A stretch of 64,000 nt of DNA from a virus. Taxonomy: Duplodnaviria > Caudoviricetes. Below, one piece after another: positions 37,866-47,871 of the stretch (position 1 is its first letter; each line of letters opens with the position of its first letter). Both the position numbers and the translations under genes were made by a program. The notes beneath the pieces are model-generated. The model searched no databases, was not told the origin of the DNA, and worked only from the letters and a program-made list of their open reading frames with translations. Location: positions 224,001-288,000 of the IMG/VR virus record IMGVR_UViG_3300028591_000072. One strand, given 5' to 3'.

Positions 37866-37882
37866 TGGCACGATATTTGATA
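37866..37882 (+). promoter_or_regulatory. Sigma54-type -24/-12 element TGGCACG-N4-TTGATA
   Basis: Further copies at 39377, 40887, 40993 and 52495. Confidence 0.6.
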
Positions 37883-38747: not shown

Positions 38748-38821
38748 CGGGGTGTGGTGCAGTTGGCTAGCACACGGCATTTGGGATGCTGAAGTCGTGG
38801 GTTCGAGTCCCGCCACTCCGA
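38748..38821 (+). tRNA. tRNA-Pro(TGG)
   Basis: CGGCA-TTTGGGA-TGCTG. Confidence 0.92.
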
Positions 38822-38876
38822 CTCAGGATGTCCACCGAGTAATGCAAGCATAGGTGGAAAATCGTCCTGAACGAAA

Positions 38877-39033
38877 GGTGCTCTGGCAGATATGGTATAT
38901 GCACTGGACTGAATACAGAGTAAACTGTAAATCAAACTCTATAGTAATTCAGTTGGTAGAAACGTGAGTCGGTGGTTCGAGTCCGCCCTATAGAGCAAAT
39001 CCAGCTAAAGTGGTTCGAGTCCACTGGGCACCA
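38877..39033 (+). tRNA. tRNA-Phe(GAA) with 84-nt anticodon-loop intron (~38914-38997) containing a nested tRNA-like domain
   Basis: Removing the insert gives CTGGA-CTGAAAA-TCCAG; acceptor GGTGCTC/GGGCACC. Confidence 0.8.
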
Positions 39034-39124
39034 CAACTAAAATAACTAAATTGGTACAGATTAAAAAATAAAATTAAACGACAATGATAAAACGAAAGTA
39101 CATAAAACGAAAACATTTAAGTAG

Positions 39125-39197
39125 GCGCTCTTAGCTTAATTGGTAGAGCTACACACTCTTAATGTGGGGGTTGTGGGTTCGATTCCCACAGGGCGCA
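39125..39197 (+). tRNA. tRNA-Lys(CTT)
   Basis: CACA-CTCTTAA-TGTG. Confidence 0.9.
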
Positions 39198-39215
39198 CGA
39201 AAATAAAAACAAGAT

Positions 39216-39293
39216 GCGCTCGTAGCTCAGTTGGTAGATAGCACCACACTTTTAATGTGGGAGTCCTGGGTTCGAGTCCCAGCGGGCGCACCA
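39216..39293 (+). tRNA. tRNA-Lys(TTT), encoded CCA
   Basis: CCACA-CTTTTAA-TGTGG. Confidence 0.9.
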
Positions 39294-39296
39294 AAA

Positions 39297-39368
39297 GCCC
39301 CAATGGTGTAACGGATAGCACTAAAGTCCACGGAACTTTTAGTGAGGGTTCAAATCCTTCTTGGGGTA
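39297..39368 (+). tRNA. tRNA-Arg(ACG) with C33
   Basis: AAAGT-CCACGGA-ACTTT. Confidence 0.8.
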
Positions 39369-39429
39369 CAAAAATCTGGCACGGTTTTTGATAATGTGCA
39401 ATGGTTCTTTGAAAAAATGAAAAAAAATT

Positions 39430-39947
39430 CATTGTGCATAGGCGGGAAACCCCTATGTAGAATCTCCTAAATTCGGTGGAAATCCTTTGGTGTGCTGGTT
39501 AAACTCCAGCCTTGTAGAAATACAAGAAGAGATTTGTCTGACTAGAAAGCACTAACCAATAATGTGTAAGGACTATACCGAGCGAAAATAAGATGTAAGG
39601 GTTGAATAAACAGGTCGGCACTTTAATATGTAGAACAGAAAGAGTGAATTACATCCACAGAAACTTACTATAAACTTATAATCGTGTAGACTGAAATGGG
39701 AGATACCTAAGTTGATTTTAGCCTCATAGGAGTAATATTCGAGTAGGGAGTATAAACAGGCACTATGTCTGTCTCACTGAAAGAAGGCTATCTTGCAAGA
39801 TTTCAATATGGTAATGTCAGTTAAGACTACAACAAGCATTTAGCTCCTTGGTTCGACTCCAAGGGATGCCTGTCACGTGTTGGAAAAGGTGTCATAAGTG
39901 GGTTCCACTTGTTTGGCTATGGTAACATAGTGTGGTAAATATCAATG
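39430..39947 (+). ncRNA. Free-standing group I ribozyme-like RNA, copy 1
   Basis: P2 hairpin, P3 tctcc/ggaga, P4 ttcggt/accgag, P5 tcctt/aagga, P7 gactg/cagtt, ctatggtaacatag hairpin; no host gene visible. Confidence 0.7.
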
Positions 39948-39959
39948 TAATTTATATAT

Positions 39960-40034
39960 GGCCCCGTAGCTCAATTGGATAGTAGCGACAGCCTTCTAAG
40001 CTGTAGGTTCTGGGTTCGACTCCCAGCGGGGTCA
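39960..40034 (+). tRNA. tRNA-Arg(TCT)
   Basis: ACAGC-CTTCTAA-GCTGT. Confidence 0.92.
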
Positions 40035-40072
40035 CAAATTTAGTTCTTTGAAAAAATTGAAAAATACAAATT

Positions 40073-40673
40073 CATTGTGCATAGGCGGGAAACCCCTATG
40101 TAGAATCTCCTAAATTCGGTGGAAATCCTTTACCTAGATATGAAAAGAAGTAGGAAAATTCATCCTAAGTTTCATTAATTTGAAATAGGTTCCGCAACAC
40201 TAACAAATAATGTGTAAGGACTATACCGAGCGAAAATGAGAATAGAATGAAAAGCAAGTACAAGCAGAAGCAATTGCCTCCTTGTAGACTTCTTTATTTC
40301 TTTATATGATACTTATTGGTGGCAATTCGTAAGTATCATTTATTCTTATAAACGTGTAGAGACTGAACGGGAGATGCCTAAGTTGGAATTATATTAAGAC
40401 GATGATAGCCCAGGATTCAAAAGAGCACCCATAATGAATGGGAGGTGGTTGGTATGAAATCCAACAATTCGTTGATAATATTACTTGCAAGAATTTCAAT
40501 ATGGTAATGTCAGTCAAGACCACAATAAATAAACATACATGTCTAATGGTGAAGACAAGCGACTTGAAAAGAAAGGCTGATGTCCGAGAGGAGACGCAAA
40601 TGTGGCATTGATGTGGGTTCGATTCCCACTATGTTTGTTCGGCTATGGTAACATAGTGTGGTAAATATCAATG
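40073..40673 (+). ncRNA. Free-standing group I ribozyme-like RNA, copy 2, with two tRNA-like inserts
   Basis: Same core as copy 1 (P7 gagactg/cagtc); tRNA-like cassettes at ~40398-40474 and ~40531-40637. Confidence 0.7.
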
Positions 40674-40686
40674 TAATTTATATATT

Positions 40687-40859
40687 ACTCCTATAGTTCA
40701 AGGGATAGAACGGAAGTTTCCTATACAAGAGTAAACTTGTTAAAATCAAAACTTCATGTTGGTGAAGATGGTCACACGTGCGTTAAAATGTCTACACGAT
40801 GGTTCGAGTCCATCACATGAAGCAAACTTCTAATCTTGGTTCGAGTCCAAGTAGGAGTA
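40687..40859 (+). tRNA. tRNA-Arg(CCT) with 101-nt anticodon-loop intron (~40723-40823) containing a nested tRNA-like domain
   Basis: Removal gives GAAGT-TTCCTAA-ACTTC; acceptor ACTCCTA/TAGGAGT. Confidence 0.82.
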
Positions 40860-40913
40860 CAAAAAAAAATAACCAGATGAAAATTCTGGCACGGTCTTTG
40901 ATAATATTGCAAT

Positions 40914-41400: not shown

Positions 41401-41522
41401 TGGGATGTGGTGTAATGGTAGCACACGTAGCACTTTATGATTTCAGACACGGAATTTTACAGCAATTATTTTAGCGATGAATTTGGGTTTCCGTGGTTTT
41501 GGTTCGATTCCAGACATCCCGA
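41401..41522 (+). tRNA. tRNA-Pro(TGG) carrying a 51-nt ACAGCAA-module insertion (41428-41478)
   Basis: Removal gives CG|GAA-TTTGGGT-TTCCG. Confidence 0.7.
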
Positions 41523-41532
41523 CTAATATGAT

Positions 41533-42292: not shown

Positions 42293-42359
42293 GAAAACCT
42301 AACAGCAATTTTTAGTAAAAAATCAGAACTTTCACTTCCGACAATAACTAATGGTTTTC
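42293..42359 (+). ncRNA. ACAGCAA-module RNA carrying a Glu(TTC)-like anticodon arm
   Basis: GAAAACC/GGTTTTC stem, TAACAGCAA, TCAGAA-CTTTCAC-TTCCGA. Confidence 0.65.
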
Positions 42360-42427: not shown

Positions 42428-42580
42428 GCCTCTTTAGTATAAAGGTTATTACACTTGACTTGTACATCAGAAGGAACTGATTAAAACCAAGCTATATTTG
42501 AAAGACAAAGCATATGCTGAAACAGCGATAGTTTCATATAGCTCAATCATGAGATGGCAGTTCGATTCTGCCAAGAGGCT
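42428..42580 (+). tRNA. tRNA-Thr(TGT) with 81-nt anticodon-loop intron (~42464-42544)
   Basis: Removal gives CTTGA-CTTGTAA-TCATG; acceptor GCCTCTT/AAGAGGC. Confidence 0.8.
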
Positions 42581-42704
42581 CTAAAATCTTCGAGGGATTG
42601 ATGCTTGGTTTAGTGTTTTGGTTACCTGACGAGGTAAACTGAGACAATAATAAGGAGTAAGAAGGAAGCATGCACTTGGCTTACTGTGTAGAAGATTTTT
42701 TAAT

Positions 42705-43279: not shown

Positions 43280-43366
43280 AGGAAACATGCAGCAATCTTT
43301 CTCAGGTTGAAAATTTTGACTGTAAATCAAATAAGGTGGTTCGAGTCCACAAAAATATTGTTTCCT
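43280..43366 (+). ncRNA. ACAGCAA-module variant (GCAGCAA) carrying a Tyr(GTA) anticodon arm and T-arm
   Basis: AGGAAACA/TGTTTCCT stem; TTTGA-CTGTAAA-TCAAA; GTGG-TTCGAGT-CCAC. Confidence 0.7.
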
Positions 43367-43453: not shown

Positions 43454-43585
43454 AGAAATCTAACAGCAATTAATAAATTCGTTTGACTGTAAATCAAAAG
43501 GTTGTGGGTTCGAGTCCCGCTGTCGCCAAAGATTATATTAGTTGAAGGCGACATAGCTCAATGGTAGAGAAAGAAAATGATTTCT
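43454..43585 (+). ncRNA. Circularly permuted tRNA-Tyr(GTA) closed by the ACAGCAA module
   Basis: 3' half (43480-43528) precedes 5' half (43547-43569); terminal stem AGAAATC/GATTTCT. Confidence 0.8.
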
Positions 43586-43782: not shown

Positions 43783-43855
43783 GGGGGTATGGTTGAATGG
43801 CTACAATGCGGGCTTGTCACGCCCTGTGGTGCGGGTTCGAATCCCGTTATCCCCG
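43783..43855 (+). tRNA. tRNA-Asp(GTC)
   Basis: GGGC-TTGTCAC-GCCC, G73. Confidence 0.9.
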
Positions 43856-43934
43856 CAATATTGGGGTTTCGAAAAAAAACGATAAAATTGCGTATAATTT
43901 GGCTTTCGAAACTATTTATAATAAAACAAAGTTT

Positions 43935-44654
43935 ATGTGTGATGGTTTAAATTTTAAATGTAAACAGTGTGGCGTAACATTTGAAAAAACAAAGTCTGAG
44001 TTATCAAAAAACCATAATGTTGTTCCTGTCTTTTGTTCTAAAGACTGTCAACAAAAATGGTATAAAGAAAATTCGTATATAACTGTAGAATGCAAATGTT
44101 GTGGAAAAGAATTTACAATAAAAAAAGGTGAATACAATAAAAATAAAAACAAAAACTTTTTTTGTTCACATTCTTGTGCTGCTAAATTTAATAATAAAAC
44201 TAGAACAATAAAAAAAACTGTTTTTGAAAAAGATAACAAAATTAAAATATCTAAAAAGAAAGAAGATATATATGGTGTATGTCCAATTTGCGGAAATAAA
44301 AAATTTAAGAAATCAATATTGTGCAAAAAATGTAGAAACGAGCAAAAAAGAAATAACATAAAAAAGAGAACACTTGGATATTTTATTGAAGGAAAAAAAT
44401 ATTTGGGTTCAAAATGTAATGAAATAAGAAAAGACGCAAAGAGAACAATTGAAGAAAGCTGTGTCGAAAAAACTTGTGCATATTGTCATAACCACGAGTT
44501 TGATGGCATATTAGAAGTACATCATATAAAAGGAATTTTGGAGTTTGATAAAAGCACGACAATAGAAGAAATAAATGATATTAATAACCTTGTTTGGTTA
44601 TGTCCAAATCATCACAGGATGCTTGAACTTGGATTAATTAAACTTGAAAAATAG
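43935..44654 (+). CDS. HNH endonuclease with Cys-rich N-terminal repeats
   Basis: CxxC..FCSxxC repeats; EVHHIK..NLVWLCPNHH; start moved to Met47 because the listed start overlaps tRNA-Asp. Confidence 0.85.
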   Translation: MCDGLNFKCKQCGVTFEKTKSELSKNHNVVPVFCSKDCQQKWYKENSYITVECKCCGKEFTIKKGEYNKNKNKNFFCSHSCAAKFNNKTRTIKKTVFEKDNKIKISKKKEDIYGVCPICGNKKFKKSILCKKCRNEQKRNNIKKRTLGYFIEGKKYLGSKCNEIRKDAKRTIEESCVEKTCAYCHNHEFDGILEVHHIKGILEFDKSTTIEEINDINNLVWLCPNHHRMLELGLIKLEK

Positions 44655-44660
44655 ATTAAA

Positions 44661-44789
44661 AGGAATTTAACAGCAAGTTACAATAGGTAAACACATTTGT
44701 AAACAAAACAAAGATTGTTGGTTCGAGTCCAACTGCGGCTTTAGGGGAACCGATGGCTGCATAGTGAAATGGAAGATAAATAGATTCCT
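44661..44789 (+). ncRNA. Circularly permuted Cys-like tRNA (ACA loop) closed by the ACAGCAA module
   Basis: AGGAATT/GATTCCT stem; TGCGGCT-T precedes GGCTGCA; break in the D-loop. Confidence 0.7.
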
Positions 44790-44997: not shown

Positions 44998-45225
44998 GGT
45001 TTGTTGTTGATAATCAAAGGAAAGTTGAGTTGGACATGGGTTCGAGTCCCATATGGTCCACTAAGTAATTGATTTTCAAGTAAATACGGGCCATCTTGGT
45101 TTTGACAGCTAATGAGTACAATGGAAGTAGACATCCGAGATGCCATAAAATAACTGGCAACGAAAATTATGCTTATGCTTATGCAGCAGCCTAAGGCAGT
45201 GCATTGAGCAGGTTGGCAGCGAACC
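44998..45225 (+). ncRNA. ssrA: Permuted (two-piece) tmRNA
   Basis: T-arm and ATGGTCC-A (to 45060) precede GGGCCAT-CTTGGTTTTGAC (45088); G3-U70 pair; tag GNENYAYAYAAA* at 45156-45194 after ATAACT. Confidence 0.9.
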
Positions 45226-46042: not shown

Positions 46043-46167
46043 GCCAAGGTAGCTCAGTGGTTTAGAGCAATGGGAGTGTATAAATGATTTTTGATTAAAA
46101 ATCTAACAGCAACTTCCAAATACCTATGTAAACCCATTGGTCGGAGGTTCGAATCCTTCTCTTGGCT
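46043..46167 (+). tRNA. tRNA (GTA or TGT depending on junction) with a 51-nt ACAGCAA-module insertion (~46075-46125)
   Basis: GCCAAGG/TCTTGGC acceptor, ATGGG/CCCAT anticodon stem; insert contains GATTTTT-GATT-AAAAATC-TAACAGCAA. Confidence 0.7.
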
Positions 46168-46175
46168 CAAAAAAT

Positions 46176-46257: not shown

Positions 46258-46331
46258 GGAAAACATACAGCAAGTTTTATCAAATTCAAGTTACAATCTT
46301 TTAAATTGTGGGACTAAATTTTTTGTTTTCC
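46258..46331 (+). ncRNA. ACAGCAA-module RNA carrying a Lys(TTT) anticodon arm
   Basis: GGAAAACA/TGTTTTCC stem, TACAGCAA, ACAAT-CTTTTAA-ATTGT. Confidence 0.7.
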
Positions 46332-47138: not shown

Positions 47139-47196
47139 CGCTAATTTCGACTTTACTTTTTCACCCTTTTTACTATTTATGTATAAAAGTGGTTTT

Positions 47197-47871
47197 ATGA
47201 AAGAAAAAGAAATAGATAAAATAAGCGTGGAACAAATAAACGAAGCTTTTGAAAAGTGTGGTAATCTTAAAGAAGTTGTTTTTTATTTTGGAAAAAAATA
47301 CAATGGCGGAAGTCAACGATTTGTATATGCTTTAATGGAAAAAGCCGGAATAAAGTATTCTGATTTTTTCAAAAAAGGGAAAGAGTATTATAAAAAAAAT
47401 GTAAAGTATTGTGAAAATTGTGGAAAAGAATTGCCATATGAAAAAAGGAATAATAAATTTTGTTCTTCTTCTTGTGCAGCATCTAAAAACAATCTTGGGG
47501 TAAGAAGAAACTTTAATCCAAATAAACCAATAATACAAACAAAAGAAGAAAAAGAAAGACTGAAGTTGGAAAGATGGAAGAATGGAGAAAATTTTTTAGT
47601 TGGCTCTTGTGAAATACCAGTTTTTATAAGAAGATATTTGTTCAGTAAAAACGAATGTAAATGTGAGCGATGTGGGTGGGGTGAAATAAATGAGGACACA
47701 GGAAAAATTCCGTTGCAAATACATCACATAGATGGTGATTGCACAAACAACAAAGAAGAAAATTTACAACTACTTTGTCCAAATTGTCATAGTTTGACTA
47801 ACACATTTGGTTCGTTGAACAAAAAGTCAAAAAGATTCCATAGAAAAAAGAAAACTTTAAAAGATATATAG
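47197..47871 (+). CDS. HNH endonuclease
   Basis: CERCG..LQIHHIDGD..NN...NLQLLCPNCH. Confidence 0.9.
   Translation: MKEKEIDKISVEQINEAFEKCGNLKEVVFYFGKKYNGGSQRFVYALMEKAGIKYSDFFKKGKEYYKKNVKYCENCGKELPYEKRNNKFCSSSCAASKNNLGVRRNFNPNKPIIQTKEEKERLKLERWKNGENFLVGSCEIPVFIRRYLFSKNECKCERCGWGEINEDTGKIPLQIHHIDGDCTNNKEENLQLLCPNCHSLTNTFGSLNKKSKRFHRKKKTLKDI

Follow-up and report, generated by a model that had tools for sequence, protein, structure and literature searches.

Three tRNA genes of a phage genome, tRNA-Phe(GAA), tRNA-Arg(CCT) and tRNA-Thr(TGT), were found to be interrupted in the anticodon loop by inserts that, judged from their sequences, are further members of the tRNA intron family of the Lak megaphages. 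Each insert combines a conserved 5' leader with a nested tRNA mimic that ends in an invariant C. The best model as a whole, to which we assign a probability of about 0.5, is that the introns are removed by proteins and that the mimic acts as the 3' splice-site signal: splicing in bacteria would then follow an undescribed route in which the mimic borrows a host 3'-end nuclease, the leader directs the 5' cut and a phage ligase joins the exons.

The window, a stretch of 64,000 nucleotides, corresponds to positions 224001-288000 of a virus record of 302,581 bases (G000; 32% G+C, estimated to be 82% complete). The stretch occurs in sheep-gut RNA runs, and a second assembly, which may come from the same sample, was 100% identical over 6431 bp. 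The split genes lie inside a 10-kb cluster of approximately 30 tRNA genes and other structured RNAs. The host of the G000 phage is presumed to belong to the Bacteroidota, given the gut habitat and the presence of the same introns in Lak phages, whose host is Prevotella (PMC6784885).

When the inserts were removed in silico, each of the three genes gave a normal tRNA with an anticodon loop of exactly 7 nt (Table 1). A covariance model of the family, R1, gave exactly three matches in G000, which were the Phe, Arg and Thr introns, and matched no ordinary tRNA. The fold of the whole Phe intron had a z score of -3.5, with 0/200 shuffles as stable, and a G38985A difference in two other RNA runs converted a G-U pair to an A-U pair in the inner T stem of the Phe mimic. 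For the Arg intron, a 74-nt version was present in the same host tRNA in L001. No relative of the window Thr intron leader was found in IMG/VR.

Table 1. Coordinates of the split tRNA genes, their introns and associated features. Positions are those of the window unless a contig or G000 is named.
Feature	Position	Strand	Basis or remark
tRNA-Phe(GAA) exon 1, to position 35	38877..38912	+	In-silico splice gives tRNA-Phe; intronless alleles L489 and L492 with identical 26-nt junction
Phe intron, 84 nt, site 35/36 by family rule	38913..38996	+	R1 71 bits; BLAST to Lak Phe gene and intron, E 8e-5
Phe intron leader: A+1, U+2, A+3, 5-bp hairpin 38914-38929 (AGTAAA loop), A-rich linker 38930-38936	38913..38936	+	Fold, family conservation
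Phe nested mimic: 8-bp acceptor (-1:73 pair C-G), D-like arm with GG, T arm 38971-38987, C74 = 38996	38937..38996	+	
tRNA-Phe exon 2 (A73 at 39033, C74 at 39034)	38997..39034	+	In-silico splice
tRNA-Arg(CCT) exon 1, to position 36	40687..40722	+	In-silico splice; intronless orthologue in G006/G008 with the same 7-nt loop
Arg intron, 101 nt, site 36/37	40723..40823	+	R1 77.6 bits
Arg intron leader (hairpin 40725-40740)	40723-40751	+	
Arg nested mimic (T arm 40798-40814, C74 = 40823)	40752-40823	+	
tRNA-Arg exon 2	40824..40860	+	In-silico splice
tRNA-Thr(TGT) exon 1, to position 36	42428..42463	+	In-silico splice
Thr intron, 81 nt, site 36/37	42464..42544	+	R1 48.1 bits (Thr intron was in the seed)
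Thr intron hairpin and linker	42466-42481, 42482-42489	+	
Thr intron 8-bp stem	42490-42497/42536-42543	+	
Thr intron divergent T arm and terminal C	42519-42535, 42544	+	No GG
tRNA-Thr exon 2	42545..42581	+	In-silico splice
Pol-beta nucleotidyltransferase fused to HEXXH-like domain	G000 74026-75357 (L469)		In all complete intron-bearing genomes
RlaP	G000 293275-294489 (L467)		In all complete intron-bearing genomes
Published Lak 'Tyr(GTA)' genes, read here as tRNA-Asn(GTT)	L002:16351-16515, L005:3284-3499		Intronless alleles L157, L281, L002, L003

A first-pass annotation of this DNA had described the Phe and Arg payloads (38937-38997 and 40752-40824) as tRNA elbow mimics with an 8-bp acceptor. 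The Phe element was as described, with an 8-bp acceptor-like stem (38937-38944/38988-38995), a D-like arm containing GG and a T arm, and with only a few bases in the place of the anticodon arm, which had been noted as missing. The 8-bp stem and T arm of the Arg element were likewise present, but this element retains a degenerate segment of anticodon-arm length (ARAGORN 'tRNA-???', Rfam tRNA 31.9 bits). Both elements had been drawn to end in CA; the letters are there, but by the family rule the last intron base is the C (38996, 40823), and the A belongs to exon 2 as its first base. The Thr intron had been credited with a non-tRNA branch, from which it was argued that the payload is exchangeable. 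The Thr intron in fact shares the 8-bp stem and the terminal C, and its 5-bp stem closes a 7-nt loop in which C56-G57-A58 are retained; only the GG is lacking. The case for exchange fails as put: the 13-bp stack and the C are invariant, and only the segment between acceptor and T arm is free. The conserved 5' leader, absent from that annotation, is the other half of the element. A functional nested tRNA gene was rejected, as a 7-nt loop on a 5-bp anticodon stem is absent from the Phe and Thr introns and degenerate in the Arg intron.

Pattern scans, an excision test and R1 yielded 28 family members with 22 distinct cores, in addition to a Pro member in G005; a second member in L277, the 3' end of which looks recombined, was left out of the counts. 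The 29 introns are 72-141 nt long and lie in tRNAs of nine isotypes (Phe, Arg, Thr, Asn, Tyr, Gly, Lys, Glu and Pro). BLAST matched the window Phe gene with its intron only to Lak megaphages (the Phe genes of Lak-A1/A2/C1). The Lak introns listed in Table S6 of the original report (Phe, Gly, Thr, 'Tyr') all have the leader, 13-bp stack and terminal C seen in the window, and R1 finds both the window and the Lak introns (Lak Phe and Asn were in its seed). Scans of bacterial and archaeal genomes gave one match, to one strict pattern, which was judged to be due to chance.

Conservation was scored over the distinct cores; because family members are related, these counts overstate the number of independent events. 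Intron positions +1 to +3 read W-Y-A, with A+3 in 22/22 cores, and are followed by a leader hairpin of 3-6 bp (66/66 paired) with an ARNNAA loop (7 nt in Pro) and by an A-rich linker that carries two pyrimidines in most members. The eight pairs of the acceptor were paired in 176/176 cells, compared to 103 ± 4.5 (maximum 119) in shuffles, with 72 two-sided changes, and the five pairs of the T stem in 105/110 cells. GG was present in the middle of the mimic in 21/22 cores, where 14 were expected from composition. The terminal C was found in 22/22, exactly 14 nt past the T-loop, a distance that was constant even where the stack splits 7+6 or 9+4. The middle of the mimic, corresponding to the D and anticodon part, ranged from 11 to 79 nt, that is, from a bare GG loop (L190 Glu) up to a full cloverleaf (L047, in the orthologue of the window Phe gene); the payloads of G006 and L011 are near-complete cloverleaves. 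Retention of the GG and of a T-loop-like 7-nt loop bears out the term elbow mimic; the window Thr member, with no GG and a divergent T-loop, weighs on the other side. T-loop conservation is inflated, as most homologues were found by patterns that required the T-loop; members found without this requirement also have it.

All 16 pairs changed on both sides in a model-fitted alignment, which leans to structure and includes a few weak non-member rows, and the covariation score was 0.89, compared to 0.23 when shuffled and 0.10-0.17 when slid. Because compensatory pairing was far above the shuffled and slid controls, the intron pairing pattern is not due to chance. Two other sequences were observed during these scans. 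A tRNA-Arg(TCT)-like gene at L155:14313-14465 (G002) carries a 78-nt insert with a different leader and no R1 match, possibly another intron subclass, and at L277:62-179 (minus strand) the family leader and mimic 5' half are fused to the 3' part of another tRNA, which has the look of a recombinant or a misassembly.

The boundaries were established from intronless alleles, which matched the predicted junction 26/26 for the window Phe gene, Lak Phe, Lak Thr and two different Lak Asn genes. Intronless Phe was present in 20 contigs and an intronless Arg(CCT) orthologue in G006/G008; no intronless allele was found for window Thr. The splice register of the window Phe and Arg genes could slide by one base and is fixed by the family rule; in members without possible sliding, the intron ends at C. 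When applied to L267, the rule gave GTT to a G73 body with a short arm and GTA to an A73 body with a long arm, and both identities were right. The insertion site varies (35/36 or 36/37) while the intron ends are constant and the adjoining exon bases are free; the cut sites are therefore determined by the intron rather than by the tRNA that carries it. To judge by G73, the short variable loop and their intronless alleles, the Lak intron hosts published as Tyr(GTA) are tRNA-Asn(GTT). Lak-A1 and a baboon Lak carry a closely related intron in different Asn genes, which implies movement between genes.

RNA-library contigs from four sheep-gut RNA runs gave unspliced forms only. Contig X1 reads through the Phe (38785-39480) and Thr introns in unspliced form and with no differences, and no excision joint was found among the 15 joints listed out of 106. 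As such contigs can contain DNA and lack short modified tRNAs, they count neither for nor against splicing. Unspliced forms would also fit a reading in which the genes are not spliced, being dead tRNAs hit by tRNA-derived insertions, or in which the unspliced RNA or the excised mimic serves to decoy tRNA-binding proteins or anticodon nucleases of the host. The many other tRNA-fragment RNAs of the cluster favour this reading, as do the payloads of G006 and L011, which point to derivation from a real tRNA. However, the exons are intact and agree letter for letter with the intronless alleles, the 7-nt loop is restored exactly in nine isotypes, compensatory conservation is strong up to the boundaries, and ARAGORN listed no further gene for any of the three anticodons in G000, a record 82% complete. 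A decoy role for the excised mimic does not explain the boundaries. We consider the unspliced reading quite improbable, and tRNA introns that are spliced at the RNA level very probable.

In tRNA numbering the mimic comprises a 7-bp acceptor, a -1:73 pair and C74, and the 3' splice site lies directly after C74. Position 74 was C in all 25 ARAGORN calls of the window; among intact tRNA genes of nine loci/genomes, C74 was present in 131/136, and CCA was encoded in only 6/136. At position 75 the ordinary phage tRNA genes have A > T > G, and the first base of exon 2 is alike. From its sequence, the 3' splice site looks like an ordinary phage tRNA 3'-processing site, which gives indirect support to the earlier idea that the mimic recruits a 3'-processing nuclease near the splice site. 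C74 without CCA in the phage tRNA genes points to cleavage after C74 by a 3' nuclease of the host.

The first-pass annotation had also suggested recruitment of RNase P. The RNase P site lies 24-29 nt inside the window introns, and the 5' side of the mimic differs from that of ordinary phage tRNAs: U at -1 was found in 6/22 mimics compared to 99/136 ordinary genes, and a G-C -1:73 pair in 15/22 compared to 9/136, a comparison between related sequences for which P values are optimistic. Both the position of the site and the changed 5' side argue against RNase P making the splice cut. The RNase P site is not a splice site, and the extra G-C pair probably disfavours the enzyme.

Bacteroidetes tRNA genes are mostly without CCA (PMC5143459), RNase Z grips the tRNA elbow to cut CCA-less precursors (PMC4810234), and a spinach chloroplast tRNase Z fraction cut after C74 (PMC3161902); a host 3'-end endonuclease is therefore proposed for the 3' cut. 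Against this, the usual cut of bacterial RNase Z enzymes is after N73, and the majority are inhibited by CCA (PMC3161902, PMC5499597). In the proposed route, the D/T elbow and acceptor stack would be offered to the host enzyme responsible for maturing ordinary tRNA 3' ends. This would most likely be an RNase Z-type endonuclease, cutting after C74 and leaving exon 2 with a 5'-phosphate. That an ordinary tRNA 3'-end nuclease makes this cut is considered fairly probable.

The leader (W-U-A, ARNNAA hairpin and A-rich linker) would mark the 5' splice site for a second hydrolytic endonuclease that leaves a 3'-OH on exon 1. W+1 was found in 22/22 cores, U+2 in 21/22 and a purine at -2 in 17/22. Whether position -2 is a purine depends on the register in Asn, Tyr, Thr and Pro, and each of these uses the register that gives one; in Phe both registers allow a purine and both are used. 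The RNase E motif 'RN/WUU' (PMC5222698) is close to this site, but the invariant A+3 and a hairpin 1-3 nt past the site do not fit the preference of RNase E for single-stranded WUU. An RNase E/G-like enzyme is for that reason a lead only, and a doubtful one, with an unknown phage protein as likely to make the cut. No 5'-site nuclease was found among the proteins common to G000 and Lak.

Sealing of the anticodon loop would fall to an RNA ligase of the ATP-grasp (Rnl2) type, probably one encoded by the phage. RNase Z and RNase E/G types leave 5'-phosphate and 3'-OH ends, which suit ATP-grasp ligases. PF09414 ligase genes are present in G001, G002 (inside the tRNA cluster; L474:1390-2061), G003, G004 and Lak-A1; no RNA ligase was found in G000, an incomplete record, and synteny comparison could not place a ligase in its missing part. 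Searches of the phages did not turn up RtcB, Lactamase_B_2, RNase Z, RNase E/G or EndA; in the B. thetaiotaomicron controls, matches for the RNase E/G and RNase Z families were obtained. T4 Rnl1 was not found in the phages, and the Rnl1 control gave no match anywhere either. RlaP and a CCA-adding enzyme occur in G000 and Lak. RlaP, which adds nucleotides rather than ligating (10.64898/2025.12.29.696909), and a second nucleotidyltransferase were rejected as splicing factors suggested by co-occurrence, because kinship explains the co-occurrence. A terminase search gave no match.

The invariance of the 13-bp plus C distance, even as 7+6 or 9+4, would also suit a dedicated, unrecognised phage endonuclease responsible for both cuts, for which the elbow would serve as a 13-bp ruler and the leader as a second site; a ligase would then join the exons. 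The leader keeps sequence as well as shape, and most phage genes are of unknown function, both of which are in keeping with such an enzyme. EndA/TSEN, however, is absent from five genomes, and there was no unexplained nuclease in 43 G000-Lak common matches examined (approximately 28 scanned, at BLAST level only). As the match of C74 to ordinary tRNA ends is more simply explained by an ordinary enzyme, a dedicated endonuclease is judged unlikely.

A new small ribozyme was weighed against the protein route. Such an intron would either splice itself or cleave itself at both ends and leave the sealing to the RtcB of the host; its core would consist of A+3, the ARNNAA loop, the linker and the last C, and the elbow would act as a scaffold. 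An A+3 and a terminal C that are unpaired as well as invariant, boundaries that are independent of the exons, the mobility of the intron between tRNA genes, and the presence of RtcB in B. thetaiotaomicron (control) when the phages have neither RtcB nor EndA are in agreement with this. In contrast, no Rfam ribozyme was matched even at E 10, and no guide pairing or pseudoknot covariation was seen among exon loop, linker, hexaloop and T-loop, with no excess over shuffles; furthermore, nearly all of the unpaired bases that are conserved are A, with a spacing that ranges over 12-17 nt, and the smallest intron is 72 nt. A ribozyme is less likely than a protein route, and is rated as improbable as the absence of splicing. 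The known small self-cleaving classes in Rfam (HDV-like/theta, hatchet, twister and others) were rejected, with no match to E 10 and no covarying long-range pairing; a hatchet-like look of the leader was dropped since Rfam gave no match.

The tRNA cluster contains several other features. Two paralogous group-I-like RNAs without evident exons and with no Rfam match (39426-39940 and 40072-40690) each carry a tRNA-like T arm or cloverleaf cassette (39847, 40533-40637); their summed contig depth in four RNA runs was 10^2-10^4 compared to 5-50 in the flanks, a sum over relatives that is a poor measure of expression. A circularly permuted tRNA-Tyr-like gene, 3' half first, lies inside a stem at 43454-43585 and is followed by ACAGCAA. 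Modules with this motif (41401-41523, 42293-42359, 43280-43366, 44661-44789, 46043-46168 and 46258-46331; relatives in L134 and L153) form a second insert class, of which some interrupt tRNA-like genes and some enclose lone anticodon arms. The sequence TGGCACG-NN-TTTTGA, which we take to resemble sigma-54 -24/-12 promoters, precedes tRNA and ncRNA blocks at 37866, 38012, 39377, 40887 and 40993 (five found, 0.18 expected). Two HNH endonuclease genes (43797-44654 and 47179-47871) are candidates for tRNA-allele homing, and a permuted two-piece tmRNA gene (Rfam RF04321) is located at 45002-45194.

If introns are removed by proteins as proposed, tRNA maturation depends on a phage enzyme, and phage-infected bacteria carry out protein-dependent tRNA splicing with repurposed maturation enzymes; to our knowledge, such splicing is known only from archaea and eukaryotes. 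The fixed ends, 13-bp ruler, C74 and leader make the question of the Lak introns, posed in 2019, directly testable. The published annotation of the Lak 'Tyr' genes is corrected to Asn, and R1 provides a model for annotating such genes. Any benefit to the phage is speculative: anticodon loops might be hidden from host anticodon nucleases until the phage ligase is present, or the introns might be selfish.

The closest known system is that of the Lak phages. Devoto et al. 2019 (PMC6784885, Fig. 4, Table S6) reported introns, termed 'enigmatic', in the Phe, Gly, Thr and Tyr tRNAs of Lak phages and noted a possible nested tRNA in the Lak Thr intron only; a 2026 survey (PMC13037316) restates this in two sentences. 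The published introns are alike in being anticodon-loop inserts of huge-phage tRNAs, in restoring a normal tRNA on excision, and in having alleles with and without the intron. The available parts of the two papers give no common architecture, leader, C74 rule or mechanism and a nested tRNA for Thr only, whereas the mimic was found here in every member, with boundaries at 35/36 or 36/37 and five further host isotypes. We did not find an earlier description of the architecture or the C74 rule, and no splicing route for Lak introns was found in the literature searched.

Group I and II introns of bacterial tRNAs are similar in their anticodon-loop insertion, patchy distribution and mobility. They were rejected on the basis of length (72-141 nt, compared to over about 200 nt), the terminal C rather than G, and the absence of a catalytic core or Rfam match. 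The archaeal and eukaryotic introns cut by EndA/TSEN at a bulge-helix-bulge (BHB) are also short anticodon-loop introns, and the present introns probably share with them a reliance on proteins that cut and ligate. That class was rejected because the BHB was present in 0/28 members, the sites are 35/36 and 36/37 rather than 37/38, PF01974 (EndA) is absent and the host is bacterial. Rfam mascRNA gave no match on the introns. In mascRNA and menRNA, a tRNA mimic without an anticodon arm is embedded in a longer RNA and docks the nucleases that process tRNA ends; the functional cut, by RNase P, falls on the 5' side of this mimic and is not followed by ligation. The phage introns resemble mascRNA in presenting an elbow (GG and T-loop) on an acceptor/T stack with no need of an anticodon arm, but differ in that the functional boundary is the 3' end of the mimic and the RNase P site is not a boundary.
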